64,000 bases of DNA from Candidatus Magasanikiibacteriota bacterium (GCA_021648085.1 JAKITS010000001.1:132948-196947), one strand, 5' to 3'. Counted from the first letter of the stretch, positions 1 through 18,778 are shown. The notes: generated by a model from the sequence alone, not told the origin. Translations and numbers: made by a program.

Positions 1-293
1 TTGGCAATGCTTATCAAGAAGCTGTAGGAATTTTAAAAATATATGTTTGGTCGGGTGTAGGACTGTTTGTTTTGTGGGGGATACAGCAACACCTTCTAAT
101 TGGAAATAGGTTGAGTACAATTTTTTATATATATTTAGTTTTGATGATTTTGAATATAAGTCTTAATTTTATATTTATTCCGTATTTTGGTTTATTGGGG
201 GCTGCGTGGGCTACCTTTATTTCTTATTCATTGGGTCCTTTTATAGCATTAATTCTATTTAAAAATAATCTTAAAAAATTTACAAGTTTTTAA
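1..293 (+). CDS. C-terminal part of a polysaccharide flippase (Wzx/MOP family). The ORF is open to the window edge.
   Basis: The frame is open from nt 3 to the stop at 293. The hydrophobic tail 'GLLGAAWATFISYSLGPFIALILF' is typical of Wzx C-termini, and the gene sits at the head of a glycan cluster. Confidence 0.45.
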   Translation, partial: GNAYQEAVGILKIYVWSGVGLFVLWGIQQHLLIGNRLSTIFYIYLVLMILNISLNFIFIPYFGLLGAAWATFISYSLGPFIALILFKNNLKKFTSF

Positions 294-311
294 GTTAAAT
301 AAAAAAATTTT

Positions 312-938
312 ATGGACACAAAATATTGGGAAAATATATACAAAAATGGAAGTATAATTAAAAAGCCTTCTTTGTTTGCTAAGTTTGTATTAAATAAGCA
401 TATAAAGGATAACGCATCTTTAATAGAATTAGGTTGTGGTAATGGAAGAGATGCTATTTTTTTTGCTTCTAATAATATAAATGTGCTTGCTGTTGATCAG
501 TGTAAAAATAAAATTTCAGAATTAAATAGTAATAAGTATAAAAATTTAATTTTTAAAGCCGGTGATTTTACCAAATTAAATAAATTTGGAACATTTGATA
601 ATATTTATTCTCGTTTTACATTACATTCAATTACAGAAAAAGAAGAAAATAACTTATTTTTATTTGTAAATTCGTGTTTAAATAAAGATGGAAAAATATT
701 TATTGAAGTGAGGGGGGAGAAAAATGGATTGTTTAAAGTTGGTAAACCTGTTATTGGCGAGATAAATGCATTTATTTATAATGGTCATTTTAGAAGGTTT
801 CTTAATATTAATAATATTTGTAAAAAGTTGGAAAGTATAAAATTAAGAATTATATCAGCAGAAGAAAAGACTGGATTTGCTCCTTTAGAGAATGAAGATT
901 TCTTTTTTATAAGAATTGTTGCTCAAAAGAATAGCTAA
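312..938 (+). CDS. Class I SAM-dependent methyltransferase
   Basis: SAM-binding motif I 'LIELGCGNGRDA'. Confidence 0.7.
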   Translation: MDTKYWENIYKNGSIIKKPSLFAKFVLNKHIKDNASLIELGCGNGRDAIFFASNNINVLAVDQCKNKISELNSNKYKNLIFKAGDFTKLNKFGTFDNIYSRFTLHSITEKEENNLFLFVNSCLNKDGKIFIEVRGEKNGLFKVGKPVIGEINAFIYNGHFRRFLNINNICKKLESIKLRIISAEEKTGFAPLENEDFFFIRIVAQKNS

Positions 939-944
939 AATATT

Positions 945-1748
945 ATGATTAACGAAGAAATAAAAAAACAAACTAGAAAGATTCAATTACGTTTATTAAA
1001 TGAATTTCAAAAAATATGCGAAAAAAATAAATTTAAGTTTTGGCTTGATTTTGGAACTTTGTTAGGTGCAGTTCGTCATAATGGATTCATTCCTTGGGAT
1101 GATGACATAGATGTCTCTATGCCAATAGAAGATTATAAAAAATTTTTAGAAATAGCTGAAAAGGAGTTACCAAAAGATATTTTTTTGCAAACTCCCAAAA
1201 CTGATAAATCATATAAACAGTATTTTACAAAGTTAAGAGACACTGGTTCTACTTTTTTAGAACACCATGAAAATAAAGAACATCAGCAAAAATATCCATA
1301 TCATAAGGGGATATTTATAGACATATTTCCTTCTGTAGCCTATCCAAAAATGCCTAAGTTATTTAGAAAAATAATGTTTCGGACAACTGTTCGGTCTAGA
1401 TATAATGCTGTTGTGCTATCAAAAAATAGGTGGCTTAATTATCCAATATATTTTTTTTGTAAAAGTGTTTGGTTTTTAGCCTCTTTTTTTAAAAAGACAG
1501 CACTTGGGAGAACACCGGAAGATAATGGATATATGTGTACAACACATATATCTTATATTTTTCCTTTAAAAAAAGTAGAATTTGAAGGTAAGTTCTATTT
1601 TGCGCCTAACAATCCAAATAAACACTTATCTCAAATGTATCGTAATCACACAACACCTACACCAATAGAAAAACGTATTCCGCACGCTAATATTATTTTA
1701 CCAGACACGCCATGTAATCATCCTAAAGCATTCAAAAGAATTGTATGA
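945..1748 (+). CDS. licD: LicD-family phosphotransferase (phosphocholine/phospho-alcohol transferase)
   Basis: 'GTLLGAVRHNGFIPWDDDIDVSMP' is the LicD nucleotidyltransferase-fold DxD signature. Length 267 aa. Confidence 0.7.
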   Translation: MINEEIKKQTRKIQLRLLNEFQKICEKNKFKFWLDFGTLLGAVRHNGFIPWDDDIDVSMPIEDYKKFLEIAEKELPKDIFLQTPKTDKSYKQYFTKLRDTGSTFLEHHENKEHQQKYPYHKGIFIDIFPSVAYPKMPKLFRKIMFRTTVRSRYNAVVLSKNRWLNYPIYFFCKSVWFLASFFKKTALGRTPEDNGYMCTTHISYIFPLKKVEFEGKFYFAPNNPNKHLSQMYRNHTTPTPIEKRIPHANIILPDTPCNHPKAFKRIV

Positions 1749-2713
1749 ACAATAAAGAGTATAATAAAATAGCACCTGTAGCACTTTTTGTATATAATAG
1801 GCTTAAAAATACAAAGGAGGTATTAGAGGCTTTACAGAAAAATTATTTAGCAAAAAAAACAGATCTTTTTATTTTTTCTGATTTTTATAAAACTGAAAGC
1901 CACAAAAAAGATGTTTTAAATGTAAGAAAATATATAAAAAATATAAGAGGTTTTAAAACTGTAAATATTATTGAAAGAAGAGAAAATTATTATATTGAGA
2001 AAAATATAATAGAGGGTGTAACTGAAATTGTAAATAGGTTTGGAAAAATTATTGTTTTAGAGGATGATGGTGTTACAGCTAGGAATTTTCTAACATTTAT
2101 GAATGGTGCACTTGATTTTTATGAAAAAGAAGATCAAATTATGCATGTCGCTACATTTACATTTATAAAAATGCCAAATGAATATAAAAAAACTTTTTTT
2201 TGGCGTTATACAGAAAATACTGGTGGAGGTTGGGGAACATGGAAAAATAGCTGGGATAAGTTTGAACAGTTTTTCTCAGAAGAAAAAGCTCTGTCTGCAC
2301 TGTCTCTAAATCAAAAAAATAGAATACAACTAAATGGTTCTTTTAAATGTCTTACCACTTTAAAATTAAACCCAATACCTTGGGATATTTGTTGGTATAT
2401 TGCACTTATCAGAAACAATGGTTTATCTGTAAATTCCCCACACGCACTTATTAAAAATAACGGATTATTTAACGGGACTCATTTTACTATAATTAATCGA
2501 CTACTTGGAAAAAGTCCTTTTGAAGTTGAATTAGATAAAAATGAAGAAATTATTTTTGATGATCATATTGTAGAAAATAAGAATGCTATAAAATTATTGA
2601 AAGTATTTTATGAGAAAATGGAAAAAAGAAAAAGAGCTATTATTTTGAATAAGTTTATTCGTATTTTGGTTGTGTTAAAGATCACAAAATTATTAAAGAA
2701 ATTTTTTAAATAA
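1745..2713 (+). CDS. Putative GT-A fold glycosyltransferase, paralog of 11017..11949
   Basis: Shares 'PVALFVYNR', 'LEDD' (DxD-like) and 'GGGWGTWKNSWDKF' blocks with the 11017 ORF ('PILLVIFNR', 'FEDD', 'GWATWRRSWDKY'). ATGA start/stop overlap with the upstream gene. Confidence 0.4.
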   Translation: MNNKEYNKIAPVALFVYNRLKNTKEVLEALQKNYLAKKTDLFIFSDFYKTESHKKDVLNVRKYIKNIRGFKTVNIIERRENYYIEKNIIEGVTEIVNRFGKIIVLEDDGVTARNFLTFMNGALDFYEKEDQIMHVATFTFIKMPNEYKKTFFWRYTENTGGGWGTWKNSWDKFEQFFSEEKALSALSLNQKNRIQLNGSFKCLTTLKLNPIPWDICWYIALIRNNGLSVNSPHALIKNNGLFNGTHFTIINRLLGKSPFEVELDKNEEIIFDDHIVENKNAIKLLKVFYEKMEKRKRAIILNKFIRILVVLKITKLLKKFFK

Positions 2714-2719
2714 GTGTAT

Positions 2720-3406
2720 ATGTTAAAAAAGCTGTTTAATATTTATCGTTTTTTATTTCCAAAGTCAAAAGTTATATTTAATGACTTACAAAGAATATAT
2801 CCAATAAGTACCATGTTTGGTTTTGATCGCGGAACACCTATTGATAGATATTATATTGAGAATTTTTTATCAGCTAATTCCAAATTTATTACAGGTAAAG
2901 TGTTGGAAATTGGTGATAATATATATACTTTAAAGTACGGTAATAAAAATGTGAAAAGTGAGGTGTTGGGATTTGATAAAACATCTCCAAATGTAACTAT
3001 AATTGGTGATCTAACAAAAATGGAAACACTGCCTAATAAAGAAATTGATTGTTTTATCTGTACTCAGACTTACAATTTTATTTATGATGTAAAAAAAGCT
3101 ATAAAAGGTAGTTATTATATCTTAAAAGAAAAAGGTACTTTGTTAGGTACGGTGTCTGGTATTTCTCAGATTTCACGATATGATATGGATAAATGGGGTG
3201 ATTATTGGCGTTTTACAGATAAATCTATTCGAATTCTTTTGGAAGAAGCAGGTTTTAAAAATATTAATGTATATCCAATGGGAAATGTATTAGCGTCCAT
3301 AGCTTTTTTACAAGGTGTTGTGATAGAGGATATGCCTAAAAAACAATTATTAAATAAACATGATAAAGATTATCAGTTAACAATATGTTTTACCGCAATA
3401 AAATAG
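2720..3406 (+). CDS. SAM-dependent methyltransferase (sugar O-methyltransferase-like)
   Basis: 'GFDRGTPIDRYYIENFL...GKVLEIGDN' block is typical of a methyltransferase family found in polysaccharide clusters. The track ORF starts at GTG 2714; the ATG at 2720 is preferred. Confidence 0.5.
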   Translation: MLKKLFNIYRFLFPKSKVIFNDLQRIYPISTMFGFDRGTPIDRYYIENFLSANSKFITGKVLEIGDNIYTLKYGNKNVKSEVLGFDKTSPNVTIIGDLTKMETLPNKEIDCFICTQTYNFIYDVKKAIKGSYYILKEKGTLLGTVSGISQISRYDMDKWGDYWRFTDKSIRILLEEAGFKNINVYPMGNVLASIAFLQGVVIEDMPKKQLLNKHDKDYQLTICFTAIK

Positions 3407-4389
3407 AGCAAGTTTTTAAAAATATTTTAACATCTGGTATTTCTCAAAAAATATTTAGTTTTTCAGATGGAAGTATAGCAACAATTTTAATGTTGCATAG
3501 AGTAGATAATATTGACACTTGCCGTTTTTTGTGTAATGAGCACTTAAAAATTTCTGAAGTTTTTTTAGAAAATTTAATTTTAGACTTTAAGAAAAAAGGT
3601 TTTATTTTTGTAAGTATTGATGAATTATTTAATAATTTAAATAAAAATGCAAATAATAAAAAGATGGTTGTTATTACTTTGGACGATGGTTATAAAGATA
3701 ATATTACAAAAGGTTTGCCGGTATTTAAAAAACATAACGTGCCATTTGTTGTGTATGTGACTACTGGAATGGTCGAACATGAGTTTATCTATTGGTGGTA
3801 TCTACTTGAAGATTTAATTTCTCAAAATAATAGTATTATTTTGAGCGATGGTAGTGTTTATAATTGCAAAAGTAAAAAAGATAAAGAAGCTACTTTTATG
3901 AGGATACGTCAAAAAATTATGTCTATAAATCCTAAAAATTTTTCAGAAATTTTTACTAAATTATTTTCGAATTATAAAATTGACCTTTACAAGTATAATG
4001 ATATTTTACCAATGTCTTGGGAAGACGTGAGATTATTGGTGGATGAGCCACTTGCAACAGTAGGCTCACATACACATTCACATATAAATTTTAAATTTTT
4101 TAATGAACTCGAGATAGTTAGTGATATAAAAAAGGCTAATATTTTATTTAAACAAAAAGTAAATTTTAAACCTAATCATTTTTGTTATCCTTATGGAGAC
4201 AATTTGAGTCCTAGAGATGAAAGAATTGTTAAATCTTTGGGTTTTAAAACTGCAGTCACAGCAAGTGTTGGTAATATTTATTCAAATTATAAAGATAAGT
4301 TGTTTTCATTACCTCGCATATTTGTTGCAGAAAATGCAAATCCTAATATTTTTAAACATATGACTTGGTTGAAATATAAAAATAAATAA
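3385..4389 (+). CDS. Polysaccharide deacetylase (NodB-homology domain)
   Basis: 'VVITLDDGYKDN' Asp-Asp metal motif and 'VGSHTHSH' His motif. Confidence 0.7.
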   Translation: MFYRNKIEQVFKNILTSGISQKIFSFSDGSIATILMLHRVDNIDTCRFLCNEHLKISEVFLENLILDFKKKGFIFVSIDELFNNLNKNANNKKMVVITLDDGYKDNITKGLPVFKKHNVPFVVYVTTGMVEHEFIYWWYLLEDLISQNNSIILSDGSVYNCKSKKDKEATFMRIRQKIMSINPKNFSEIFTKLFSNYKIDLYKYNDILPMSWEDVRLLVDEPLATVGSHTHSHINFKFFNELEIVSDIKKANILFKQKVNFKPNHFCYPYGDNLSPRDERIVKSLGFKTAVTASVGNIYSNYKDKLFSLPRIFVAENANPNIFKHMTWLKYKNK

Positions 4390-4414
4390 TTTTAGTATTT
4401 ATATTCTTAATATT

Positions 4415-5647
4415 ATGTATAAAAAACTATCTATAATAATGCCGTGTTATAATTGTGAGTCTACGATTGAAGAAGCCGTAAACTCTATTTATAAGCAAGA
4501 TTTACAAATACCGTTTGAGGTGGTTATGGTAAATGATGGGTCAACTGATAATACAGAAAAAATTATAAATAATTTAGTTATTAGGTTTAGTGAAATAAAA
4601 CGTATTATCCATAAGCAAAATAGAGGTGGTGGAGCAACAAGAAATACAGCTGTAAAAAATTCAGACGGAGACTTAATTTTTTGTTTAGATAGTGACGATA
4701 TTTTACCAAAAAATATGCTCTATAAAATGGTGGAATGTATAAGTAAAAAAAAAGTTGATGGAGTTGTTTTTCACGAAGCCAGATTTTTTAAAGGTTTAAA
4801 TAAAAATAAAACTAGTAGTAGTTTTAACAATATAAATAATAGAAATTTTGAAGTAAAAGACTTGTTTAATGAGAATAACGGATCTTTGACATTGGTTAAT
4901 TTTTTATATACTAAAAAAGCTTTTGATATTGCTGGTGGTTATCCGGAAAATCATAATATGGACACCCAAGCTTTTGGATTTCGCTTTATTACTAAGGGTT
5001 TAAAAGCTTGTGTTTGTCCGGATACTTATTATTTTCATAGACAAGCTAATAAAAAATCATATTTTGAAAGAATGTATGAGTCAGGTGAATTCTCATTAAA
5101 CTTTTATTATATATATGAAGAAATATTATATCTTTTTTCCAGAGAAGATGTAAAAAATATTATTAAGTATAATGTTTTTAAAAATTCTAAATTAGGAGAA
5201 AAAAATTTAAAAGTTGAATTGGATCTGAAATATTTGAAAAAAAAAGATAGTTTGTTTATATCTAATTACAAAAATTATGTTATTAAAGATGGTTTTGATA
5301 AATATATAAAAGAAACGCCAGAATGTGAGGAATTTTATAATAAATTTATTAGGGCTGTTTATTTTTATAAAAAACATGAGTTTAATAAGGCATTAGATTT
5401 ATTTATAGAATCGTTAAATTTTGACACTTTCAATAAATTAGTGTACTTTAACATAATACGTTGCGTCGTCGCCCTGTCTGGTGTAAATAGAAATTTAATT
5501 GAAAAAGAGTCTGTAAAAATAACTGAATTACTAGCTTTAAAAAAACAAAAGATAAATTTAAATCCAAATTTTATTAAAAAAATATTAATTTTTTTATGGA
5601 AATTTGTTAAAAAATATAAAAAAGTTTTTAATAATAGGATAAAATAA
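4415..5647 (+). CDS. Family 2 glycosyltransferase with extended C-terminal domain
   Basis: 'LSIIMPCYNCESTIEEAVNSIYKQ...VMVNDGSTDNT...FCLDSDD' GT2 motifs. Confidence 0.75.
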   Translation: MYKKLSIIMPCYNCESTIEEAVNSIYKQDLQIPFEVVMVNDGSTDNTEKIINNLVIRFSEIKRIIHKQNRGGGATRNTAVKNSDGDLIFCLDSDDILPKNMLYKMVECISKKKVDGVVFHEARFFKGLNKNKTSSSFNNINNRNFEVKDLFNENNGSLTLVNFLYTKKAFDIAGGYPENHNMDTQAFGFRFITKGLKACVCPDTYYFHRQANKKSYFERMYESGEFSLNFYYIYEEILYLFSREDVKNIIKYNVFKNSKLGEKNLKVELDLKYLKKKDSLFISNYKNYVIKDGFDKYIKETPECEEFYNKFIRAVYFYKKHEFNKALDLFIESLNFDTFNKLVYFNIIRCVVALSGVNRNLIEKESVKITELLALKKQKINLNPNFIKKILIFLWKFVKKYKKVFNNRIK

Positions 5648-5651
5648 AAAT

Positions 5652-6593
5652 ATGATAAAGGCGATTTTGTTTGATTTGGATGGGGTTTTGGTAAATATGC
5701 CTGATGGGCATTATGAAGCTCTAAATAAGACTTTAAATCTTTTTGGTACGCAGATTGAAAGAGAAGAGCATGTGTTAAACTTCAACGGATTACCAACAAG
5801 AAAGAAGGTTGAAAAATTACAAGAGCAGGGGCGCTTACCTAATGGTTTAGTAGAATTAATAAATAGTGTTAAGCAAATACACACAAAAAAAATTATTCCA
5901 AAATATTGTGTACCAGATTATTCAAAAATTATTTTGTTAAAACAGTTAAAGAAAAAAGGATATAAATTGGCTTGTTGTTCAAACTCTGTAAAAGAAACTT
6001 TACATTTAATGCTTAAATCTGCACAGTTATTTGATTATTTTGATTTTATTATAGGCAATGATGAGGTTGTTAATTCAAAGCCAGATCCAGAAATATATCT
6101 CAAAACATTTGAAAAAATGGGTTTAAAGCCAAATGAATGTATTATTGTGGAAGATGCTCCACCTGGTGTTGAGGCAGCAAAGAGAAGTGGTGGTATTGTA
6201 TACCAAGTAAAAGGTGTTGAGGATGTTAACTTATCTTTGTTTAAAGATTTATTATTGAACAAAATACAAAAAACTTTAAAATTAAGTGATTTTACAAAAG
6301 GTTGGATTATTGGTGATTTTGATTTGAGTATTTTAAAAACTAAGGATTTTGAGGTCGCCATAAAATATTATAAAAAAGGAGATTTAGAACCTGAACATGT
6401 TCACAAAATAGCAAGAGAAATTACAGTTTTCATTTCTGGAATTTTTAAAATGAATGGTAAAGAATTTAGAAAAGGTGAAATCATGGTTTTGGATCCTAGT
6501 GAAAGTAGCAGTTTCGAGTGTTTAGAAGATGGATTTATTATAGTAATTAAAACACCATCAGTTGTGGGGGATAAATATATAATTAATAAGTAA
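5652..6593 (+). CDS. HAD-superfamily hydrolase (beta-phosphoglucomutase-like) fused to a C-terminal cupin domain
   Basis: N-terminal 'ILFDLDGVLV' HAD motif I, 'SNS' motif II and 'GNDEVVNSKPDPE' region. C-terminal ~100 aa 'GWIIGDFDL...EPEHVHK' is cupin-like. Confidence 0.6.
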   Translation: MIKAILFDLDGVLVNMPDGHYEALNKTLNLFGTQIEREEHVLNFNGLPTRKKVEKLQEQGRLPNGLVELINSVKQIHTKKIIPKYCVPDYSKIILLKQLKKKGYKLACCSNSVKETLHLMLKSAQLFDYFDFIIGNDEVVNSKPDPEIYLKTFEKMGLKPNECIIVEDAPPGVEAAKRSGGIVYQVKGVEDVNLSLFKDLLLNKIQKTLKLSDFTKGWIIGDFDLSILKTKDFEVAIKYYKKGDLEPEHVHKIAREITVFISGIFKMNGKEFRKGEIMVLDPSESSSFECLEDGFIIVIKTPSVVGDKYIINK

Positions 6594-6597
6594 TATT

Positions 6598-7353
6598 ATG
6601 TCAAAAACACTAAATATAATAATTCCAATGGCAGGAAAAGGATCTCGTTTTAGAGATGTTGGTTATACATTTCCAAAACCTATTATAGATATAAAAGGAA
6701 AAACAATGATTGAGGTTGTAATAAACAATCTTAAGCCAGATTGTGACCATAAGTTTATTTTTATTTGTCAGAGAGAGCATTATGAAAAATATGATCTTTA
6801 TAATATTTTAAAAAACGCTACAGACAATAAGTTTGAAATTGTACAAATAGATGGTATTACAGAAGGTGCTGTTTGTACAGTTCTTTGTGCTCTACAATAT
6901 ATAAACAATGAAAATGATATTGTGATAGCAAATTCAGATCAGTTTATTAGTATGGGATTGAATGATTTTATTAATGACGCTAGATGTGGGGATAAGGACG
7001 GGTTGATTATGACTTTTAAAGCAAGTCACCCTAAGTGGAGTTATGCTAGAGTAGGTGAGGACGGTAATGTTGTGGAAGTGGCAGAAAAACGAGTAATTTC
7101 AGATAAGGCAACTGTGGGAATTTACTATTTTAAATCAGGTAAAGAATTTATAAGATCTGCACAGTCTATGATAGAAAAGGATATGCGACATAATAATGAA
7201 TTTTATGTTTGTCCTGTGTATAATGAAATGATTTTGGAAGATAAAAATATAGGTATAAAAAACATAGAAGTGGAAGAGATGCACGGTTTAGGAACGCCAG
7301 AGGATTTAAATGAGTTTTTGAAAAAATTAGATGGTGGAAGTGTAAAAATTTAA
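6598..7353 (+). CDS. Sugar-phosphate / phospho-alcohol nucleotidyltransferase (LicC/RmlA-like)
   Basis: N-terminal 'IIIPMAGKGSRF' nucleotidyltransferase P-loop-like signature. Confidence 0.65.
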   Translation: MSKTLNIIIPMAGKGSRFRDVGYTFPKPIIDIKGKTMIEVVINNLKPDCDHKFIFICQREHYEKYDLYNILKNATDNKFEIVQIDGITEGAVCTVLCALQYINNENDIVIANSDQFISMGLNDFINDARCGDKDGLIMTFKASHPKWSYARVGEDGNVVEVAEKRVISDKATVGIYYFKSGKEFIRSAQSMIEKDMRHNNEFYVCPVYNEMILEDKNIGIKNIEVEEMHGLGTPEDLNEFLKKLDGGSVKI

Positions 7354-7359
7354 ATTTTT

Positions 7360-10349: not shown

Positions 10350-10355
10350 TTTTTT

Positions 10356-11949: not shown

Positions 11950-11957
11950 ATATAAAA

Positions 11958-12734
11958 ATGAAAAAAAGAATATTACACTTTATTAAATTTTTTTTACGTA
12001 AGTTTGGAGTTATAATTATTAAGCCAAAAGATGTAAATATAATAAGTAGGCTTAAAAAAAAATTTATACATAATGAAAGAAGTTTCGTGTCAGGACTAAC
12101 TAAGAGGCTGGCCGATTCTTTATATTGCCATGCTTCCCCAGGCGTTATCGAATTAATTATTGTTTATTTATCTAAATATTTAAAAAATAACAAAGAAAAT
12201 AATAAATTACTTAATCTGGGTGGAGGAACTGGACAAGTATCTGATATTTTTCGTGAGATTGGTTTCAATGTTTATAATGTGGATCTTGAAGAAAAAAATG
12301 AAAGTGAAAAAAAAATAAGGTTTGATTTAAATAGCAGTAAAGAGCTTCCGTTTTCTTCTTCTTTTTTTAATGTTGTTGTATGTTCGGAAATAATAGAACA
12401 TATTGAGAATCCATGGAAACTCTTCAGGGATGCAAAAAGGGTTTTAAAAAAAGATGGGATTTTAATAGTGACAACTCCAAATGTACAATCGTTGTATAGT
12501 AGGATTAAATTTTTGTTTAAAGGATACTTACATTGGTTTACTCTCGAATGTTTTTCTTATCATATAAATCCGGTATTTAAATGGGAAATAGACTTGATTG
12601 CAAAAAAAAATAATTTCGATGTTTTAAAAATAATGGGTAGTGGAGATTACTTTTTGTCTAGAGATAATAGAAATTATAAAAAAATTATAAGAAATAATGA
12701 AAGTTTGATTATTTTTTTAAAAAATAATGCATGA
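11958..12734 (+). CDS. Class I SAM-dependent methyltransferase
   Basis: 'LLNLGGGTGQVS' motif I and 'VVCSEIIEHIENP' post-II region. Confidence 0.65.
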   Translation: MKKRILHFIKFFLRKFGVIIIKPKDVNIISRLKKKFIHNERSFVSGLTKRLADSLYCHASPGVIELIIVYLSKYLKNNKENNKLLNLGGGTGQVSDIFREIGFNVYNVDLEEKNESEKKIRFDLNSSKELPFSSSFFNVVVCSEIIEHIENPWKLFRDAKRVLKKDGILIVTTPNVQSLYSRIKFLFKGYLHWFTLECFSYHINPVFKWEIDLIAKKNNFDVLKIMGSGDYFLSRDNRNYKKIIRNNESLIIFLKNNA

Positions 12735-13582
12735 TAGTAATTAAACTAAAAGGTGGCTTAGGAAATCAATTATTCCAATATGCATTTGGGAGCCTTCTTG
12801 CTTCTAAAAGAAAAGAGGAACTGTTTTTGGATAAAGATATTTTAGGTGCTAAAAAAGATAGTTATCGTCAGTGTGGTTTAAAACATTTTAACATTGGTAA
12901 TAGTATCGTTACTTTTAATGAAGTGCAGAAAATTAAATATCCTTTTGGTATTATTTCAAAAATTTGGCGTGGATTTAAAGGTAAAATACTGAAAATACAT
13001 AATGTTGGCTGGAATCCACGAATTTTGAATTCTAAAAAGAGTTATTTTGATGGGTATTGGCAGAGTTATAAATATCCAAAAATAATAAGGGAGAAATTAT
13101 TAAAAGAGCTTACTCTTAAAAACCCTATTAAAGATAAATATTATAATATTTTGGAAAAAATTAATAACTCAAATTCAATTTCTTTACATGTCAGAAGGGG
13201 GGATTATGTGAATAATCAAAAAACTGCCAAGGTTCATAATATTTGTAATTTAGAATATTATGAAAAGGCAATAGAAAAAATTTCTAAAAAAATAGACAGT
13301 CCAATATTTTTCATTTTTTCTGACGATATTGGGTGGGTAAAAAATAATTTGAAAATTAAAAATTCTACATTTTTTGTTTCTGACACAAATATTGAAGATT
13401 ATGAGGAGTTAATAATAATGAGTAAATGTAAACATAATATTATTGCGAATAGTACATTTAGTTGGTGGGGTGCTTGGTTAAATCAAAATAAAACTAAAAT
13501 AGTCATCGCACCTGCTAAATGGAATAATAAATATCAAAAAAAATATAAAGACTTAATTCCACCAAGTTGGATAAAAATATAA
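12731..13582 (+). CDS. Alpha-1,2-fucosyltransferase (GT11)
   Basis: N-terminal 'KLKGGLGNQLFQYAFG' is the diagnostic GT11 motif. 'HVRRGDY' is a second GT11 block. Confidence 0.8.
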   Translation: MIVIKLKGGLGNQLFQYAFGSLLASKRKEELFLDKDILGAKKDSYRQCGLKHFNIGNSIVTFNEVQKIKYPFGIISKIWRGFKGKILKIHNVGWNPRILNSKKSYFDGYWQSYKYPKIIREKLLKELTLKNPIKDKYYNILEKINNSNSISLHVRRGDYVNNQKTAKVHNICNLEYYEKAIEKISKKIDSPIFFIFSDDIGWVKNNLKIKNSTFFVSDTNIEDYEELIIMSKCKHNIIANSTFSWWGAWLNQNKTKIVIAPAKWNNKYQKKYKDLIPPSWIKI

Positions 13583-13583
13583 T

Positions 13584-14363
13584 ATGAACTTGTTTAAAAT
13601 CAGTATAATAATGATAAATTATAATCGTACTGAGTATATAAAAGAAGCTATACAGAGCGTTTTAGACCAATCACTCAAAGATTGGGAACTTGTAATTGTT
13701 GACGATGGCTCTACTGATTCTAGTGAAAATATTATAAAATCATTCAGTGAAAAAGATGATAGAATTGTTTATTTTAAAAATGAAGAGAATTTAGGAATAG
13801 TATATTCTAGGAATAAGACATTAAAAAATTCAAAAGCTGATTTAGTTGCAGTGTTAGATAGTGATGATATTTGGGTGGATAATTTTAAATTAGAGAAGCA
13901 AGTTGGTAAATTTAAAGAAAATAAAAATCTTGTTTTGGTTGGCGGTGGTGTTATTGAGATAGATAAAAACGGAAAAGAGAAAAAAAGATATTTAAATCCT
14001 AATAGCGATGAAAAAATACGAAAAAATATTTTATTTAAAAATCCTTTTGCGCATTCTAGTGTAATGTTTAAGAAAAGTATTGTGGAAGGTGTTGGAGGTT
14101 ATAATAATCTAGAGATAGGTGAAGATTATGATCTGTGGTTGCGTTTGGGAAAAGAGGGTAAATTTTTAAATTTAGATGACTATCTTGTAAAATATAGAGT
14201 GCATAGCAAAAATACCTGCAACACAAAAATTATTCAGGCCTTAAAAAATAATATAATTTTAGTGTTGAAATATAGAAAATTTTATGGTAGATTTTATATT
14301 GCTATAACAAGACGATTATTTCGTTATATTGTTGGTTTGGTTTTATTTAAAACAAAAAGATGA
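13584..14363 (+). CDS. Family 2 glycosyltransferase
   Basis: 'ISIIMINYNRTEYIKEAIQSVLDQ...VIVDDGSTD...LDSDD'. Confidence 0.8.
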   Translation: MNLFKISIIMINYNRTEYIKEAIQSVLDQSLKDWELVIVDDGSTDSSENIIKSFSEKDDRIVYFKNEENLGIVYSRNKTLKNSKADLVAVLDSDDIWVDNFKLEKQVGKFKENKNLVLVGGGVIEIDKNGKEKKRYLNPNSDEKIRKNILFKNPFAHSSVMFKKSIVEGVGGYNNLEIGEDYDLWLRLGKEGKFLNLDDYLVKYRVHSKNTCNTKIIQALKNNIILVLKYRKFYGRFYIAITRRLFRYIVGLVLFKTKR

Positions 14364-15472
14364 AAATTCTTTATTTAATTACAAAATCAGAACAGGGTGG
14401 GGCGCAAACACATGTGGCTCAGCTTATGAAACACTTCAAAGAAAAGGATTGGGATATAACTTTGATGTCATCTTCGCAAGACGGCTGGCTTGGAAAAAAG
14501 GCGGCTGATTTTGGTGTTGATTTTATACCGAGTAAATACTTAACCAATACTATAAATCCACTAAAAGTTTGGAAGAGCTTTTTGGAAATTCGCAAGGTTG
14601 TAAATAAGACTAATCCGGACATTGTTCATTGTCATAGTTTTTTTGCTGGTTTCCTCGGGAGGCTTGCTGTAAAAGGTAAATATCCTACAATTTTTACACC
14701 ACACGGTTGGGGTTTCAATGTTGGGGTTTCTTTTTTTCGCAAACATTTTGCAATTCAAGTCGAAAGATTTTCTAGTCGTTTTACAAACAAAATACTTTGT
14801 GTTTCAGAATATGGAAAGAAACTAGCTATTCAATATAAAATAGATAAACCAGAAAAATTTATTGTAATTTATAATGGAATTGAAGATGTTTTACCAACTA
14901 TCGAATGCGCTAAAACACTAAGTGAAAAAGTGAATTTTGTCTTTGTTGGAAGATTGACAGAACCAAAAAAGCCTTCATTTCTATTAAAAGCAATTACTCT
15001 TTTACCAGAAGATATAAAACAAAAAGTTAATGTGACAATAATAGGAAAAGGTGAGAAAGAAAAAGAAATAAAAGAATTTATAATTAAAAACAATTTAGAA
15101 AAAACAGTAATTCTAAAAGGTCTTTTGTCTAGAGAGGATGTTTTTGATCAGCTTTGCAATAAGACTGATGTTTTTACCTTATTTTCAAAGTGGGAAGGTC
15201 TGCCAATTACTATTCTAGAGGCTATGAGCGCCAGCTTGCCGGTAGTAGCATCGAAAGTTGGAGGAATACCCGAGCTTGTCTCAAAAACTAATGGTTTCTT
15301 AATTGAGCGAGATGATATAAATTCTTTGGTAAACGCTATAACAACTCTTGTAAAAGAAAGTGATTTAAGAATAGAAATGGGTAAAAATTCAAGAAAAAAA
15401 ATACAGGAAAATTTCACCCTATCTATAATGTTTAGTAAAGTGGAAGAAGAGTATAATAATTTGTTAAAATAA
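14360..15472 (+). CDS. Family 4 (GT-B) glycosyltransferase
   Basis: 'FSKWEGLPITILEAMSASLPVVASKVGGIPE' GT4 C-terminal signature. Confidence 0.8.
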   Translation: MKILYLITKSEQGGAQTHVAQLMKHFKEKDWDITLMSSSQDGWLGKKAADFGVDFIPSKYLTNTINPLKVWKSFLEIRKVVNKTNPDIVHCHSFFAGFLGRLAVKGKYPTIFTPHGWGFNVGVSFFRKHFAIQVERFSSRFTNKILCVSEYGKKLAIQYKIDKPEKFIVIYNGIEDVLPTIECAKTLSEKVNFVFVGRLTEPKKPSFLLKAITLLPEDIKQKVNVTIIGKGEKEKEIKEFIIKNNLEKTVILKGLLSREDVFDQLCNKTDVFTLFSKWEGLPITILEAMSASLPVVASKVGGIPELVSKTNGFLIERDDINSLVNAITTLVKESDLRIEMGKNSRKKIQENFTLSIMFSKVEEEYNNLLK

Positions 15473-15476
15473 TTTT

Positions 15477-16157
15477 ATGAAGATTGTTTTGATTGGATAT
15501 GGTGAAATAGGAAGTTCATTGTACGAGGTTTTTTCTAATTATGCACAAATAGAAATTTGTGATATTGATAAAAAAGTAGAAGGGAAGTTTGATATGATGT
15601 TTGTGGCAATTCCATATACAGAAAATTTTGTGGAGATTGTAAAAAATTACCAACTAAAACACAAGCCAAAAAGTACTATAATCTTCTCAACAGTTGCAAT
15701 TGGTACTTCAAGTCAGCTGGGTGCTGTACATTCTCCGGTTGAGGGAATGCACCCCACACTTGCAGATAGTATTCGTAGGGCTATAAGATGGGTTGGTGGT
15801 GAATCTACTGATTTTATCGGTCTTTTGGAAAAAGCTGGGATCAAGTTTAAGCAAGTCAAAAAACCAGAACATACAGAATTTTTAAAATTAAGATCCACTT
15901 CTCTTTATGGTGTGAATATTGAGTATGCTAGATATTGTAAAAAAGTAGCAGATGAAATAGAAATGGATTTTGAATATGTAAAAGATTTCGATTTGGATTA
16001 TAATAAACTATATAGAGATTTGGGAAAAGTTAATTATCAACGATATATATTAAATCCACCAGAAGGTAAAATAGGTGGACATTGTGTAGTGCCAAATGCA
16101 AAGATGCTTGATAGTCAATTCCCAGATGATTTTTTAAAAAAAATATTTAAAGATTAA
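15477..16157 (+). CDS. NAD(P)-binding Rossmann-fold protein of unknown function
   Basis: 'MKIVLIGYGEIGSSL' dinucleotide-binding motif. Confidence 0.35.
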   Translation: MKIVLIGYGEIGSSLYEVFSNYAQIEICDIDKKVEGKFDMMFVAIPYTENFVEIVKNYQLKHKPKSTIIFSTVAIGTSSQLGAVHSPVEGMHPTLADSIRRAIRWVGGESTDFIGLLEKAGIKFKQVKKPEHTEFLKLRSTSLYGVNIEYARYCKKVADEIEMDFEYVKDFDLDYNKLYRDLGKVNYQRYILNPPEGKIGGHCVVPNAKMLDSQFPDDFLKKIFKD

Positions 16158-16161
16158 ACAT

Positions 16162-17064
16162 ATGTCAAAATGTATTGTAACAGGTGGAGCGGGTTTTATA
16201 GGGTCTCATATCACAGATAAATTAATTGAACTCGGAAACGAGGTTTTAGTAATAGATAATTTAAGCTTGGGTAAAAAAGAATTTGTTAATTCAAAAGCTG
16301 AATTCCACCAAGTGGATATAAGAAATTTTGAGGAAATTAAAAATTTATTTGAAGGTGTTGGGGTTGTTTTTCATTTGGCAGCCGAGCCAAGACTTCCAAT
16401 TTCTATCGAAAAACCAATTGAAACTAACGATATAAATGTAAGTGGAACTTTGAATATACTTGAAGCTTCTAGGTTAGCGGGTGTAAAAAAAGTAGTTTTC
16501 TCTTCTTCTTGTGCTGTTTATGGAGATTGTGCGGTTATGCCAATTACTGAGAATTATCATAAAAATCCAAAAAGCCCCTATGGACTTCATAAATTGATAG
16601 GTGAGCAATACATGAAACTATACTCAGAACTGTTTGATTTGCCGACAGTTTGCTTAAGATATTTCAATGTCTACGGTCCTAGAAAATTGGCAGATGGGGG
16701 ATATCCAATGGTTATACCTGTATTTTTAAAGCAAATTGCAGAAGGTAAAAAAATGACAGTAATTGGAACAGGAGAAAATACAAGAGATTATGTCCATGTA
16801 AATGATGTTGCAGATGCAAATGTAAAAGCATGGGAATCAGAAGTTGTAAACGGAGAGTCTATAAATATAGGATTTGGAGAACAGACTAGTGTAAATAAAA
16901 TTGCAGAACATATTGGAGGTGAGAAAGAGTATCTTGAGCCTCGTATTGGAGAAATGTGTCGTGCCCAAGCTAATATTGAAAAAGCAAAAGAACTTCTAAA
17001 TTGGGAACCAGCTGTAAAATTTGAAGAGGGTATTGCTGGGTTAAAAAAAGAAATGGGGCTTTAA
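16162..17064 (+). CDS. NAD-dependent epimerase/dehydratase (UDP-hexose 4-epimerase-like)
   Basis: 'IVTGGAGFIGSH' and catalytic 'SPYGLHK' YxxxK. Confidence 0.8.
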   Translation: MSKCIVTGGAGFIGSHITDKLIELGNEVLVIDNLSLGKKEFVNSKAEFHQVDIRNFEEIKNLFEGVGVVFHLAAEPRLPISIEKPIETNDINVSGTLNILEASRLAGVKKVVFSSSCAVYGDCAVMPITENYHKNPKSPYGLHKLIGEQYMKLYSELFDLPTVCLRYFNVYGPRKLADGGYPMVIPVFLKQIAEGKKMTVIGTGENTRDYVHVNDVADANVKAWESEVVNGESINIGFGEQTSVNKIAEHIGGEKEYLEPRIGEMCRAQANIEKAKELLNWEPAVKFEEGIAGLKKEMGL

Positions 17065-17077
17065 GAATAAATTATAA

Positions 17078-17112
17078 AAAAAACACCGAGGCAAGTCTCG
17101 GTGTTTTTTTAT
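17078..17112. terminator. Bidirectional intrinsic terminator between convergent genes
   Basis: An A-run, then hairpin 'CACCGAG-GCAAGT-CTCGGTG', then a T8 run. Confidence 0.7.
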
Positions 17113-17126
17113 ATGTAAGTTTTTTT

Positions 17127-17215
17127 GTCATTCCTCTTAATTACAAAGCAGTCTTAGTATTTAATTCTTAGTTCTATTTTACAAACCCTGGATACCTAAT
17201 CGAGTTGAGGATGAC
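17127..17215. repeat. Family B MITE-like palindromic element (~89 nt)
   Basis: Starts 'GTCATTCCTC' and ends 'CTAATCGAGTTGAGGATGAC'. Same termini as the elements at 38730, 43473 and 56380. Confidence 0.7.
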
Positions 17216-17237
17216 AGTAAGAAAAGTTATTTTGAAT

Positions 17238-17279
17238 CGAGATCCATTCGACTCCGCTTTGCTTCGCTCAGGATGACGT
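17238..17279. repeat. Family A repeat unit (inverse orientation)
   Basis: 'CGAGATCCATTCGACTCCGCTTTGCTTCGCTCAGGATGACGT'. Confidence 0.75.
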
Positions 17280-17389
17280 GTGGAAACAAATTTACAAATT
17301 TTGGATCCCAATCAAATTAAAAATGTCAATGTTAGGTTTTTTGTTTTGTATTATGTTCTGTGTCTTTCCTTATTTAGTCTACTGTTTTC

Positions 17390-18778
17390 TTATTGCCCCA
17401 TAAATCTAATCACCAAATTCACAGTTTTTAATAAAATAGACACGTCCAAAAATATAGATCGGTTTTTTATATAAAACAAATCGTATTGAAGTTTTTGTAA
17501 TGAGCTTTCCATTGTGTCGGTATAGTTTTGGTTTATTACAGCCCAGCCAGTTAATCCGGGTTTTACGACATGTCGCAGTGAATAATATGGCATTTGTTCT
17601 TCTAGTTTTTTTGTTATTTCAGGTCTTTCTGGACGTGGTCCCACTAGTCCAATTTCTCCTTTTAGCATGTTTATTGCTTGTGGCAATTCGTCCAATCTGG
17701 TTTTTCTTAGGAATTTACCAAAACTTGTGATTCGTTTATCACCCTTTTTTGCAAAAGTAGCACCATCTATTTCGGCACTTCCATCTTTTGACAGAGCAAA
17801 CATAGATCTAAATTTGTAGATCATAAAGTGTTTTCCGAAGCGACCAATTCGTTTTTGTTTGAAAAAAACAGGCCCTTTTGATGTTGCTTTAATACCTATT
17901 GCAATAAAAGGAAGTGCTAGAGCAAATATAATAAAAATAAGTACAGCTCCAAAAAAGTCTAAAACAGTTTTAAATTTTTCATACACTGTGTTTTCATGAT
18001 GTCGGAGGTGTTGCAAAAACCAACCTTCAGAAAAAGTAAATGGAGGAATTCTACCCGTCGCAACTTCATAAAAAGATGATAAATCATTGATTTGTACTTT
18101 CCAAAAAAGCAATTCATAAAATTCGCGCATTGCATGATGATCGTCTTTTAAATTTGGAGATATTACTACTAAATGTGCATTATGATTTGTAATTGCCGGT
18201 CTTATTGTATTTAAATTGTAATAAACATCAAAAGAAAATTCAGATGATTTTATGATCTTGTTTGGCTCTATTAATCCTACAATTTTATAGCCTCTTTCTG
18301 GATTTTTTTCGAAAATATCTATTAATTCTTTTGCGTCTTTAGTATAACCAACTAAAAGAACATTTGTTTGTAGTTTTCTTATTCCAGAAAATTTTCTAAA
18401 TAAAAGTCTCCATAAAAAACTTAAACTATATCCAGTAAACACATTTAAAAGTAGTAGTGTTTTTGGAGCTATTTTTGAATTATTTATTAGGTAGAAAAAG
18501 AACACTCCAACAACTAGTGACAGTATGGCAGTCTCCACAAAACGACGATAAAAGGTTTCTTTTTTTGATATTTTAATAAGATCGTATAGACCGTTTATAT
18601 AATTGTTCAAAATCCAAATTATAAAAATAACACTAAATAGGGGTAAGTGTGATTCTATTTTTTCTAATGTGGGTAAGTGAAAGTTTCGTATTAAAAAACT
18701 TAACCAAAATCCGACCAAAAGACTTAGAATATCTCCAGAAAGTAAAATTATTTGTTTGAATCTATAAATAAAACGCAT
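17390..18778 (-). CDS. Polyprenyl-phosphate hexose-1-phosphate transferase (WbaP/WcaJ-like initiating sugar transferase)
   Basis: N-terminal TM segments. The C-terminal bacterial sugar-transferase domain matches 'KFRSMF...GLTGWAVINQ' and 'LVGPRPERPE'. Confidence 0.8.
   Translation of the reverse strand: MRFIYRFKQIILLSGDILSLLVGFWLSFLIRNFHLPTLEKIESHLPLFSVIFIIWILNNYINGLYDLIKISKKETFYRRFVETAILSLVVGVFFFYLINNSKIAPKTLLLLNVFTGYSLSFLWRLLFRKFSGIRKLQTNVLLVGYTKDAKELIDIFEKNPERGYKIVGLIEPNKIIKSSEFSFDVYYNLNTIRPAITNHNAHLVVISPNLKDDHHAMREFYELLFWKVQINDLSSFYEVATGRIPPFTFSEGWFLQHLRHHENTVYEKFKTVLDFFGAVLIFIIFALALPFIAIGIKATSKGPVFFKQKRIGRFGKHFMIYKFRSMFALSKDGSAEIDGATFAKKGDKRITSFGKFLRKTRLDELPQAINMLKGEIGLVGPRPERPEITKKLEEQMPYYSLRHVVKPGLTGWAVINQNYTDTMESSLQKLQYDLFYIKNRSIFLDVSILLKTVNLVIRFMGQ

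Follow-up and report, generated by a model that had tools for sequence, protein, structure and literature searches.

The 64,000-nucleotide stretch of Candidatus Magasanikiibacteriota DNA analysed here (the window) opens with a cluster of glycan genes in which a LicD-family phospho-alcohol transferase, a nucleotidyltransferase and a glycerophosphodiester phosphodiesterase-like (GDPD-like) protein share one operon, and the locus raises the question of whether these three proteins act in a single decorating pathway or belong to separate units. A preliminary description had taken them together as pointing to a phosphocholine- or phosphoglycerol-type decoration on a methylated, fucosylated surface glycan. 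The observation itself is confirmed by the present analysis, and that interpretation as a whole is partly supported.

Gene content and boundaries of the locus

Positions 312 to 17064 hold 19 tightly packed, co-directional ORFs, all on the plus strand (as are all features below unless stated), with junctions of -52 to +60 nt, several of which are 4-nt overlaps; the GC content of the cluster is 0.280, lower than the 0.323 of the remaining window. The run is preceded by the C-terminal part of a Wzx-like flippase of the MOP superfamily (3-290), a hydrophobic frame-3 translation of 96 residues with a stop at its end, whose gene starts to the left of the window and which matches MurJ weakly (E = 2e-4, under the Pfam cut-off). 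Downstream, a bidirectional intrinsic-terminator-like hairpin (17077-17110; 14-bp stem with A7 and T7 runs on either side) starts 13 nt past the stop codon of the last gene, and a convergent gene on the minus strand (17390-18778), encoding a polyprenyl-phosphate hexose-1-phosphate transferase of the WbaP/WcaJ type (Bac_transf, E = 8e-60; TIGR03025, 355 bits against a cut-off of 296), closes the locus. The region is a real surface-polysaccharide gene cluster of an ordinary kind. Essentially all of the gene content given in the preliminary description, including the flippase tail and the convergent initiating transferase, is recovered with Pfam, NCBIfam and motif evidence; two genes were missing from that list, a WavE-family gene (8220-9227) and a gene for a 226-aa protein (15477-16157) with a Rossmann-like N-terminus and a GGHC motif, for which Pfam, NCBIfam and the PDB give nothing significant and which is assigned to no family.

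The glycosyltransferases include two GnT-I/GT13-like GT-A proteins (1745-2713 and 11017-11949), which are weak paralogues, as described previously (25% identity, E = 2e-7). Their EDD motifs (position 106 in the former) align with POMGNT1, the profile of the latter matching POMGNT1 (5ggf) at E = 2.6e-4 across this motif; however, both fall below the Pfam GNT-I model, which is matched by 5 of 31 members of the 11017 family (9513 cluster representatives at E <= 1e-3), and 1745 has no Pfam match of its own. The remaining transferases are a GT2 extended by about 200 aa at its C-terminus (4415-5647; PF00535, E = 5e-34), a GT11 of the alpha-1,2-fucosyltransferase family (12731-13582; PF01531, E = 4e-42), a second GT2 (13584-14363; PF00535, E = 5e-36) and a GT4 (14360-15472; Glycos_transf_1, E = 1e-35, and Glyco_transf_4). 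The GT11 carries the HxRRGDY motif of FutC-type fucosyltransferases (H153VRRGDY), but genes of the GDP-fucose pathway, including GMD/GFS, are absent from the window. The NodB-type polysaccharide deacetylase (3385-4389; PF01522, Polysacc_deac_1, E = 5e-21) retains its D100D and H229THSH motifs, and the GalE-like NAD-dependent SDR epimerase (16162-17064; PF01370, E = 3e-65) has an intact Y140xxxK motif and scores 190 bits against the GalE model TIGR01179, under its cut-off of 262. The order radical SAM-methyltransferase, GT11-GT2-GT4 and GalE is shared with locus L010 of another metagenome-assembled genome (MAG), where the GT11 occupies the same position (43% identity) and the GT2 and GT4 are syntenic (42% each).

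Four of the five methyltransferases counted in the preliminary description belong to the cluster. Two of them are class I SAM enzymes at 312-938 (Methyltransf_31/25/23/11 above cut-offs) and 11958-12734 (Methyltransf_23, E = 6e-21), and the one at 10356 is described below; the fourth, at 2714-3406, is a probable, borderline member (Methyltransf_11, 21.1 bits against a cut-off of 21.2) with a relative in L028/L029 (27% identity) that is annotated as a methyltransferase. The fifth, at 38922, is separated from the cluster by more than 20 kb; it has a housekeeping context of TruB, pyrophosphatase and IF-2 genes and is rejected as a member of the locus.

A comparison with Wzx/Wzy O-antigen, capsule and exopolysaccharide clusters, such as those of the Salmonella O-antigen and E. 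coli colanic acid, reveals a similar low-GC operon, in which a full-length Bac_transf priming enzyme that exceeds the TIGR03025 cut-off is accompanied by a fragment of a MOP flippase, GT2, GT4 and GT11 enzymes, an SDR epimerase and decorating enzymes. The present locus differs in its CPR host and its convergent priming enzyme, and no Wzy polymerase, Wzz chain-length regulator or ligase is found in the window, so the route of assembly is deduced from the 96-residue flippase fragment. To our knowledge, an outer membrane is not expected in CPR bacteria, and the labels "O-antigen" and "capsule" may therefore not apply.

LicD and the cassette of the nucleotidyltransferase and phosphodiesterase

The LicD-family protein (945-1748) matches PF04991 along its full length (E = 6e-43, profile positions 1-227 of 227), and its intact D52DDID56 motif is matched by DYDVD in the alignment with FKRP (6kaj), which relates it to LicD of S. 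pneumoniae and H. influenzae and to FKRP/fukutin. In contrast to the LicABCD systems, LicD here has a class I methyltransferase as its conserved neighbour. No choline kinase (LicA) or choline permease (LicB) is found among the scanned window ORFs of at least 120 aa (all except 58796, 61548 and 63363), the window contains no LicC-like enzyme, and the nucleotidyltransferase belongs to another cassette. In L033, the closest LicD relative (68% identity) is directly preceded by an orthologue of the 312 methyltransferase (58% identity), a pairing based on one short contig, and this gene order suggests that the 312 methyltransferase probably acts together with LicD.

The nucleotidyltransferase and the GDPD-like protein are, by contrast with the earlier proposal, partners of a HAD(-cupin) protein and a WavE-family protein. 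In this window, the first gene of the cassette (5652-6593) encodes the HAD-cupin fusion recognised earlier. Its HAD-IA half is beta-phosphoglucomutase-like (HAD_2, E = 2e-35; TIGR02009, E = 6e-33; PDB beta-PGM, E = 1e-15) and shares 70-79% identity with free-standing CPR proteins. Residues 204-311, in which an HxH...E metal motif can be read from the sequence, share 40-48% identity with 106-aa cupins that occur as separate proteins in Ruegeria, Roseinatronobacter and Pseudomonas; one of these passes Pfam Cupin_2. The second gene (6598-7353; PF00483, E = 1e-15) encodes the NDP-sugar pyrophosphorylase-like nucleotidyltransferase, which is 54-74% identical to its counterparts in CPR cassettes and 46-52% identical to those on proteobacterial plasmids, and which in the PDB is most similar to an NDP-sugar pyrophosphorylase of V. 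cholerae (4evw; E = 3e-22 over the full length).

The third gene (7360-8223) encodes the GDPD-like phosphodiesterase, which matches PF03009 in its N-terminal half only (52 bits) and is 34-47% identical to the proteins of L024, L025, L027 and L028. As in GlpQ and UgpQ, the HRG motif, Glu, E-x-D and second catalytic His are present, with H7, R8, E20, E37, D39 and H52 aligned with the catalytic residues of solved GDPDs; however, His takes the place of the third metal-binding Glu (Asn in the 204-211-aa proteobacterial versions), the protein has its own conserved WLD, SPELHG and CTDxPE motifs, and it is located in a biosynthetic cassette. A loss of catalytic residues, which the preliminary description had named as grounds for rejecting its proposal, is thus seen neither here nor in LicD. 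No signal peptide is seen by eye, so this protein, which appears to be cytoplasmic like UgpQ, is not an obvious extracellular scavenger.

The fourth gene (8220-9227) encodes a 335-aa protein above the gathering score of the WavE family (PF07507, 46 bits against a cut-off of 27), to which WavE of the V. cholerae wav core-oligosaccharide cluster belongs. Its AF2 model (pLDDT 90.7) has a GT-A fold with weak Foldseek matches (TM 0.3-0.38) to nucleotidyltransferases as well as to GT-A transferases. Full-text searches of the literature found no assigned function for WavE/PF07507, and the name of 4evw is generic and was given by its depositor. The setting here differs from that of the V. cholerae proteins in that both genes lie within a cassette of 4-6 genes with HAD, cupin and GDPD-like components.

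The cassette is contiguous in 10 other distinct loci: in CPR bacteria, L024 (in the same order as here), L025, L026, L027, L028/29, L041 and L042/43, and, on plasmids, L030 (Ruegeria), L031 (P. alcaligenes pMRCP2) and L032 (Roseinatronobacter). The phosphodiesterase part of the cassette holds an inositol-monophosphatase-family gene and a 145-aa ORF in L026, and both the phosphodiesterase and an inositol-monophosphatase/FBPase-family gene in L041; an orthologue of the 4415 GT2 (47% identity) lies near the cassette in L024. Several related cassette loci have ABC transporters in place of a flippase. Of the 120 best HAD matches and the 120 best WavE matches, 13 agree in the length of their longest contig.

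The proposal that LicD, the nucleotidyltransferase and the GDPD-like protein form one pathway would have the phosphodiesterase act on scavenged glycerophosphodiesters to free head-group phosphate or glycerol-3-phosphate, the nucleotidyltransferase convert it to CDP-choline or CDP-glycerol, and LicD place the phosphocholine or phosphoglycerol on the glycan. The shared operon, the catalytic residues kept in both LicD and the GDPD-like enzyme, and the weak IspD-type (alditol-phosphate cytidylyltransferase) matches of the nucleotidyltransferase (E = 2e-3) and its paralogue NT2 (E = 7e-5) are consistent with this pathway. CPR bacteria depend on scavenging, and the methyltransferase beside LicD could conceivably N-methylate an ethanolamine-type head group. 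However, LicD is present in none of the 10 other cassette loci, in which WavE is the co-travelling transferase, and no nucleotidyltransferase or GDPD of the cassette type is present near LicD relatives (8 loci, most of them short contigs). The nucleotidyltransferase resembles sugar-1-phosphate nucleotidyltransferases (rmlA_long and archaeal GlmU, E = 1e-15) more closely than IspD, and in the PDB it gives no match to LicC at E <= 0.001; together with the lack of LicA and LicB noted above, this argues against the pathway. Additionally, the cassette occurs in free-living Proteobacteria, so host scavenging is not the logic there. A single LicD pathway is thus unlikely.

An equally doubtful alternative is that the HAD-cupin protein and the nucleotidyltransferase perform a non-canonical hexose activation, with the cupin as isomerase, the HAD as phosphomutase and the nucleotidyltransferase as pyrophosphorylase, and WavE as an ordinary hexosyltransferase; for example, fructose-6-P would be converted through mannose-6-P and mannose-1-P to GDP-mannose, feeding GMD/GFS-type enzymes and GT10/GT11 "fucosyltransferases". 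The beta-phosphoglucomutase-like HAD, the cupin metal motif and the very high conservation of the HAD and nucleotidyltransferase fit this scheme, as does the inositol-monophosphatase/FBPase-family gene of L026 and L041, and type II PMI-GMP enzymes combine a nucleotidyltransferase with a cupin. In L024, L026 and L041, a pair of GDP_Man_Dehyd-type SDR genes is found close to the cassette or directly on its upstream side, and GT10 or GT11 genes adjoin it in L041, L042 and this window. However, the cupin has no MannoseP_isomer match in Pfam even at E <= 5, the nucleotidyltransferase matches the mannose-1-P guanylyltransferase model only at E = 3e-3, and GMD/GFS are missing from this window. Moreover, beta-PGM-type mutases yield beta-anomers, whereas GDP-mannose requires alpha-Man-1-P, and the scheme leaves the conserved phosphodiesterase and the second nucleotidyltransferase unexplained.

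The radical SAM enzyme and its partner methyltransferase

The radical SAM enzyme (9288-10349) belongs to an uncharacterised family in which PF04055 is the sole domain found. The core cysteines C59, C63 and C66 (C59x3Cx2C66) are invariant in the family alignment, as are an N-terminal FTSTGxK motif and five further cysteines in the Cys-rich C-terminal half (C218, C256, C274, C318 and C321). The AF2 model (pLDDT 93.5) has DesII (E = 7e-12, TM 0.51), SuiB, BlsE, viperin, SpeY and BtrN as its nearest folds. DesII, BlsE, viperin, BtrN and SpeY, which act on sugars or nucleotides, share the CX3CX2C core; however, the sequence match is limited to this N-terminal core (12-17% identity), and these enzymes differ from the present one in the FTSTGxK motif, the five extra cysteines, the HxNF C-terminal end and the class I methyltransferase partner. 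That partner is a 213-aa protein (10356-10997; Methyltransf_11/25/23/31), and methyltransferases of this type (37-57% identity) adjoin the radical SAM gene in 17 of 18 assessable distinct loci.

Hosts of the pair include CPR bacteria, DPANN archaea and delta-proteobacterial, planctomycete and actinomycete MAGs, and its neighbours are mostly GT2, GT1/4, methyltransferase, SDR and Wzx genes, so that the setting is in every case one of glycan synthesis. B12-binding radical SAM enzymes are present in other glycan loci near such pairs.

It is very improbable that the radical SAM enzyme is itself a C-methyltransferase making C-methylated sugars, as the preliminary description implied and as the richness of the locus in methyltransferases and those B12-binding enzymes elsewhere might suggest. 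The profile search finds no cobalamin-binding domain, which excludes it from the class B methylases, its C-terminal half is Cys-rich, its nearest folds are not those of class B, Cfr or RlmN methylases, and a separate methyltransferase accompanies it. Of the methylated, fucosylated glycan envisaged earlier, the methyltransferase-rich operon and the GT11 motif are supported.

A probable mosaic of conserved modules

Three conserved units are shown: the 312 methyltransferase with LicD, the HAD-cupin/nucleotidyltransferase/GDPD-like/WavE cassette, and the radical SAM enzyme with the 10356 methyltransferase. On balance, the region probably covers the distal part of an operon for a surface polysaccharide or glycoconjugate of the Wzx type in a CPR (Patescibacteria) host, built as a mosaic of such independently conserved modules. 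As to the host, the radical SAM, HAD and WavE proteins match NCBI proteins of a Candidatus Magasanikbacteria MAG (984-kb contig) at 100% identity. The presence of a phosphodiesterase inside a biosynthetic cassette counts against this mosaic-operon reading and is unexplained. Also counting against it are the weak, mixed fold matches of WavE, the lack of Wzy, Wzz, ligase and GDP-fucose genes in the window, the ABC transporters of related loci and the single short contig behind the pairing of the 312 methyltransferase with LicD.

In the proposed mechanism, the WbaP/WcaJ-type enzyme would prime synthesis by transferring hexose-1-phosphate onto polyprenyl phosphate, and the repeat unit would be built by the GT4, the two GT2, the GT11 and the two GnT-I-like GT-A enzymes, with the GalE-type epimerase supplying precursors. 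The cassette may provide an NDP-activated sugar or polyol: a phosphorylated precursor would be made ready by the HAD-cupin protein and the phosphodiesterase and then activated by the nucleotidyltransferase, and WavE would be the dedicated GT-A transferase that attaches the product. LicD would add a phospho-alcohol from a CDP donor, and the 312 methyltransferase would then modify this substituent. The twitch-like radical SAM enzyme may perform a radical oxidation or elimination of the DesII/BtrN/viperin type on a sugar or sugar nucleotide, whose product would be methylated by the partner enzyme (10356). Additionally, the NodB-type protein would de-N/O-acetylate one residue, the remaining methyltransferases would O-methylate others, and the finished unit would be exported by Wzx.

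The locus is thus of a known kind, put together from several gene cassettes that are also present in numerous other microbes, and contains two conserved cassettes that are not yet characterised.

Organization of the polysaccharide gene cluster

Nineteen ORFs lie between 312 and 17064, all on the + strand, with junctions of -52 to +60 nt and frequent 4-nt overlaps, and the operon is closed by a hairpin at 17077-17110 with a 14-bp stem and A7 and T7 runs on either side. Upstream, bases 3-290 in frame 3 encode the end of a MOP-type flippase, a hydrophobic C-terminal segment that matches MurJ weakly. A convergent WbaP/WcaJ-type priming transferase (TIGR03025/Bac_transf) occupies 17390-18778 and is full-length, as its TIGR03025 match of 355.2 bits (cut-off 295.6) extends over residues 16-457. 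The GC content of the cluster is 0.280, compared with 0.323 in the remaining window. The products of 9288 (radical SAM), 5652 (HAD-cupin) and 8220 (WavE) match NCBI proteins of a Candidatus Magasanikbacteria MAG at 100% identity, on a contig of 984,181 bp. The whole locus is a polysaccharide gene cluster of a known kind, primed by a WbaP/WcaJ-type transferase, and its backbone block, which runs from the radical SAM enzyme (rSAM) and its methyltransferase (MT) through GT11-GT2-GT4 to GalE, is syntenic in a metagenome-assembled locus (L010) at 42-47% identity.

Nearly all of the genes listed in a preliminary description of the locus are upheld by Pfam and NCBIfam. The NodB deacetylase (PF01522, 75.5 bits) contains both D100D101 and H229THSH233, the GT11 enzyme (PF01531, 144.8 bits) carries its HxRRGDY-type motif as H153VRRGDY, and the YxxxK motif of the GalE-like SDR is intact. 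Among the five MTs proposed, those at 312, 10356 and 11958 each match several Methyltransf profiles above their cut-offs, whereas 2714 is only a probable MT because its profile score of 21.1 bits lies just below the cut-off of 21.2, and the MT at 38922 has TruB, pyrophosphatase and IF-2 genes as neighbours and does not belong to the locus. The label “GT-A-like” for 1745 and 11017, which are weak paralogues of each other, is right, because the profile of their family reaches POMGNT1 (E 2.6e-4) across an EDD motif present in both ORFs, and some members of the family match GNT-I (PF03071; 5 of 31, best E 9e-6), although neither ORF does so itself. This family is very large (9513 cluster representatives) and has no Pfam model of its own; the PDB sequence search with 11017 was empty.

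Two operon genes were missing from that list, namely a WavE-family gene (8220-9227) and a 226-aa ORF (15477-16157). The latter is tightly packed in the operon; its N-terminus is Rossmann-like and its GGHC motif recalls UDP-sugar 6-dehydrogenases, but it is half the length of those enzymes and has no match in Pfam, NCBIfam or the PDB sequence search.

The scan of the remaining window covered ORFs of at least 120 aa, except 58796, 61548 and 63363, and revealed an S8 protease with FG-GAP repeats, a second SDR/GT2/GT4 set, a PilT-type ATPase, PBP2 and two tRNAs; beyond these come a low-GC defence/restriction island and, after it, housekeeping genes. Neither choline nor GDP-fucose genes, nor any for Wzy or chain-length control, are present among the window ORFs scanned (58796, 61548 and 63363 excepted). 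The S8 subtilase lies just past the priming transferase in the segment 18856-24415, together with a UXS/RmlB-like SDR (20908), a 220-aa GT2 (21955) and a GT4 (23213), and these genes may extend the glycan locus or make up a second one. The island (28139-35704, GC 0.255-0.288) directly follows tRNA-Glu(CTC) and tRNA-Met at 27695-27871 and is probably a defence/restriction element that has integrated there. Its genes encode RhuM, RadC, a 400-aa protein without a family assignment, a HerA/DUF87 ATPase, a MutH/Sau3AI-like endonuclease and a C5 DNA methylase. Additionally, the - strand encodes an Elp3-like protein with Radical_SAM, Radical_SAM_C and GNAT domains in this CPR genome (54689-56329) and a 688-aa Mur ligase (59500-61566), whose N-terminal extension of approximately 220 aa weakly matches ATE_C (arginyl-tRNA-protein transferase C-terminus/Fem-like fold).

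The HAD-cupin, nucleotidyltransferase, GDPD-like and WavE cassette

Four consecutive operon genes, encoding a HAD-cupin protein (5652), a nucleotidyltransferase (NT, 6598), a GDPD-like phosphodiesterase (7360) and the WavE protein (8220), form a cassette that ranges from Patescibacteria to Pseudomonas megaplasmids. It is contiguous in the CPR loci L024, L025, L026, L027, L028/29, L041 and L042/43, and its gene order in L024 is identical to that of the window. In L026, the HAD is separate from a 120-aa ORF that is possibly the cupin, and the usual place of the GDPD is taken by a gene of the inositol-monophosphatase family together with a 145-aa ORF; L028/29 carries a second, paralogous NT (NT2). 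The cassette is also found on plasmids of cultured bacteria, in the order 209-211-aa mini-GDPD, HAD, NT2, cupin, NT1 and WavE in Ruegeria (six genes at 51.5-55.6 kb of NZ_CP065364.1 in Ruegeria sp. SCSIO 43209) and Roseinatronobacter, and in a different order, with WavE approximately 4 kb downstream, on pMRCP2 of Pseudomonas alcaligenes. Within the CPR, the HAD proteins share 70-79% and the NTs 54-74% identity, compared with 40-52% between CPR and Proteobacteria. Among the best 120 HAD and best 120 WavE matches, 13 have a longest-contig size in common.

Recurrent neighbours of the cassette include ABC2/ABC_tran exporters, pairs of GDP_Man_Dehyd-type SDRs, GT10 or GT11 enzymes and Wzy_C-TPR proteins. 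In L024, L026, L027, L041 and L042, a gene for an HTH_17 protein of 81-89 aa precedes the ABC2_membrane (and ABC_tran) exporter genes beside the cassette, directly in four of the five loci and with one SDR pair in between in L041. Near the cassette, L024, L026, L041 and L042, but not L027, also encode large Wzy_C-TPR fusions of 680-840 aa. pMRCP2 (L031) is a megaplasmid of a clinical P. alcaligenes with a complete cassette aboard, and both of its cassette NTs (within 8998-17449) are labelled “glycosyltransferase family 2 protein” by PGAP, which is probably misleading. A further NT match (51% identity, the NT alone being compared) lies on NZ_CP017294.1, a plasmid of a P. aeruginosa blood isolate.

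The proposed HAD-cupin fusion is borne out by the C-terminal 110 residues of 5652, which are 40-48% identical to stand-alone proteins of 106 aa, one of which passes Pfam Cupin_2; nothing was found for this domain in the PDB sequence search. The best solved relative of the NT is a V. cholerae enzyme (4evw). The GDPD-like protein matches PF03009 with 52.1 bits (cut-off 23.6), over positions 1-103 of the 244 of the profile only. Its residues H7, R8, E20, E37, D39 and H52 align with the catalytic residues of T. maritima 1o1z and of 7e0v, and the position of the third metal-binding Glu (IEIK motif) is occupied by His. The WavE protein reaches 46.3 bits with PF07507 (cut-off 27), and an identical protein is named WavE family by NCBI. 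Its AF2 model (pLDDT 90.7) suggests a GT-A-type fold, but the Foldseek matches are all remote (TM 0.3-0.38) and comprise SpsA, COLGALT1, GnT-I and MGS as well as KdsB and RmlA-type NTs; the T146RTD149 motif contains a single invariant Asp. Literature searches on WavE and PF07507 gave nothing relevant.

The cassette could make and transfer an NDP-activated residue not yet described. In the preliminary description, LicD, the NT and the GDPD were instead joined into a single route to phosphocholine or phosphoglycerol. The LicD protein (945) itself is well supported, with 147.9 bits against PF04991 (cut-off 22.6) over profile positions 1-227 of 227, and its DxD motif is kept as D52DDID56, aligned with the IPWDYDVD segment of FKRP (6kaj); it is predicted from its sequence to be a phospho-alcohol transferase that uses a CDP-activated donor. 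Co-occurrence counts against the joint route in both directions: the NT travels with WavE instead, and LicD is absent from all of the other cassette loci described here, while the lack of a cassette beside relatives of LicD is weak evidence, because the metagenome contigs scanned for them are mostly shorter than 5 kb. The closest LicD relative (68% identity, L033) has a 312-type MT (58% identity) immediately upstream, a pairing based on this one contig. Additionally, the choline kinase LicA, the permease LicB and a LicC-type cytidylyltransferase were not detected by Pfam among window ORFs of at least 120 aa (58796, 61548 and 63363 excepted), the NT has no PDB match to LicC at E ≤ 0.001, and the cassette also occurs in free-living Proteobacteria. 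Literature searches on LicD with GDPD yielded nothing relevant. Although LicD could yet use a product of the cassette in this operon, a Lic-type route is thus unlikely, and LicD, NT and GDPD genes that share an operon should not be annotated as a Lic-type pathway.

A further alternative is a non-canonical hexose route, in which a cupin isomerase, a HAD mutase and the NT would feed GMD/GFS and GT10/GT11 enzymes. Several genomic contexts agree with this proposal, but profile support is absent and both the phosphodiesterase and NT2 are left without explanation, and this route is likewise unlikely.

The radical SAM and methyltransferase pair

A second cassette consists of the rSAM (9288) and the 213-aa MT (10356), which are neighbours in 17 of the 18 distinct loci that could be assessed, with MT identities of 37-57%; L019 contains a distant rSAM homologue without the MT. 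The pair occurs in CPR, in Woese- and Pacearchaeota, and in MAGs labelled Gamma- or Deltaproteobacteria, Planctomycetota and Actinomycetes. The pair has no conserved third member; around it lie genes for GT2, GT1/4, MTs, SDRs, Wzx and other rSAMs.

The rSAM scores 64.7 bits with PF04055 (cut-off 29.5). C59, C63 and C66 of its CX3CX2C motif are invariant across 35 sequences. Five further cysteines (C218, C256, C274, C318 and C321) and an N-terminal FTSTGxK motif are also invariant in the family, and a C-terminal HxNF motif is present. These additional cysteines are candidate ligands of a C-terminal auxiliary [4Fe-4S] cluster as in twitch/SPASM enzymes, and their spacing may resemble that of BtrN. 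For the AF2 model (pLDDT 93.5), the nearest folds are those of DesII, SuiB, BlsE, viperin, SpeY and BtrN (12-17% identity), and the fold matches include the twitch/SPASM enzymes BtrN, SpeY and anSME; at the sequence level, only the N-terminal core matches solved structures and the C-terminal half has no match. A role as the C-methylase of the locus is very unlikely, and a class B methylase was rejected because the B12-binding domain is absent (PF02310 was not found, and both the rSAM and its homologues carry PF04055 only). Several B12-binding rSAMs of class B type do lie beside GTs and MTs in related CPR loci (L001, 26-1444; L025, 892-2340, 11621-14373 and 15882-16987), and glycans may thus often undergo radical methylation in such lineages, though not via the rSAM of the window.

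The pair could instead represent a cofactor-independent two-step route, in which radical oxidation or elimination of the BtrN/DesII/viperin type is followed by C- or O-methylation. Its product might be a branched C-methyl keto-sugar or a 4-deoxy-5-O-methyl-hexos-5-ulose as at the terminus of the Methanococcus maripaludis N-glycan. A terminal 5-O-methyl-hexos-5-ulose sugar is documented for this glycan in reviews, with MMP1085 (aglV) as its methyltransferase; synthesis of such a terminal sugar by the pair is a low-probability proposal. Literature searches on radical SAM and nucleotide sugars gave nothing relevant.

Proposed pathway and biological meaning

The gene families, their motifs, the operon and the conservation of the cassettes are observed, and a pathway may be proposed alongside them. 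The WbaP-type enzyme would place the priming sugar on polyprenyl phosphate, and the unit would be built by seven glycosyltransferases. The HAD-cupin/NT/GDPD-like/WavE cassette would provide an NDP-activated residue, with WavE as its putative transferase, and LicD would add a phospho-alcohol, a possible substrate of the 312 MT. By radical chemistry, the rSAM would oxidize a sugar or sugar nucleotide or catalyse an elimination on it, and the partner MT would then methylate the product. NodB and the other MTs would decorate the unit before its presumed export by Wzx.

No characterised counterpart of either cassette was found above any NCBIfam cut-off or in the searchable literature, and we tentatively consider it possible, though less likely than not, that at least one of the two encodes glycan chemistry so far undescribed. 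The HAD-cupin/NT/GDPD-like/WavE cassette is also carried on plasmids of cultured Ruegeria, Roseinatronobacter and Pseudomonas, so that what it does can be studied directly in organisms open to experiment.

CPR/Patescibacteria are episymbionts that need to attach to host cells, and their surface glycans are, to our knowledge, almost unstudied. As this locus shows, the glycan operons of the CPR are assembled from portable cassettes, two of which are widespread and without an assigned function. The rSAM-MT pair connects ultra-small bacterial and archaeal lineages, and it may bring a new reaction to the few known radical SAM enzymes that modify sugars.
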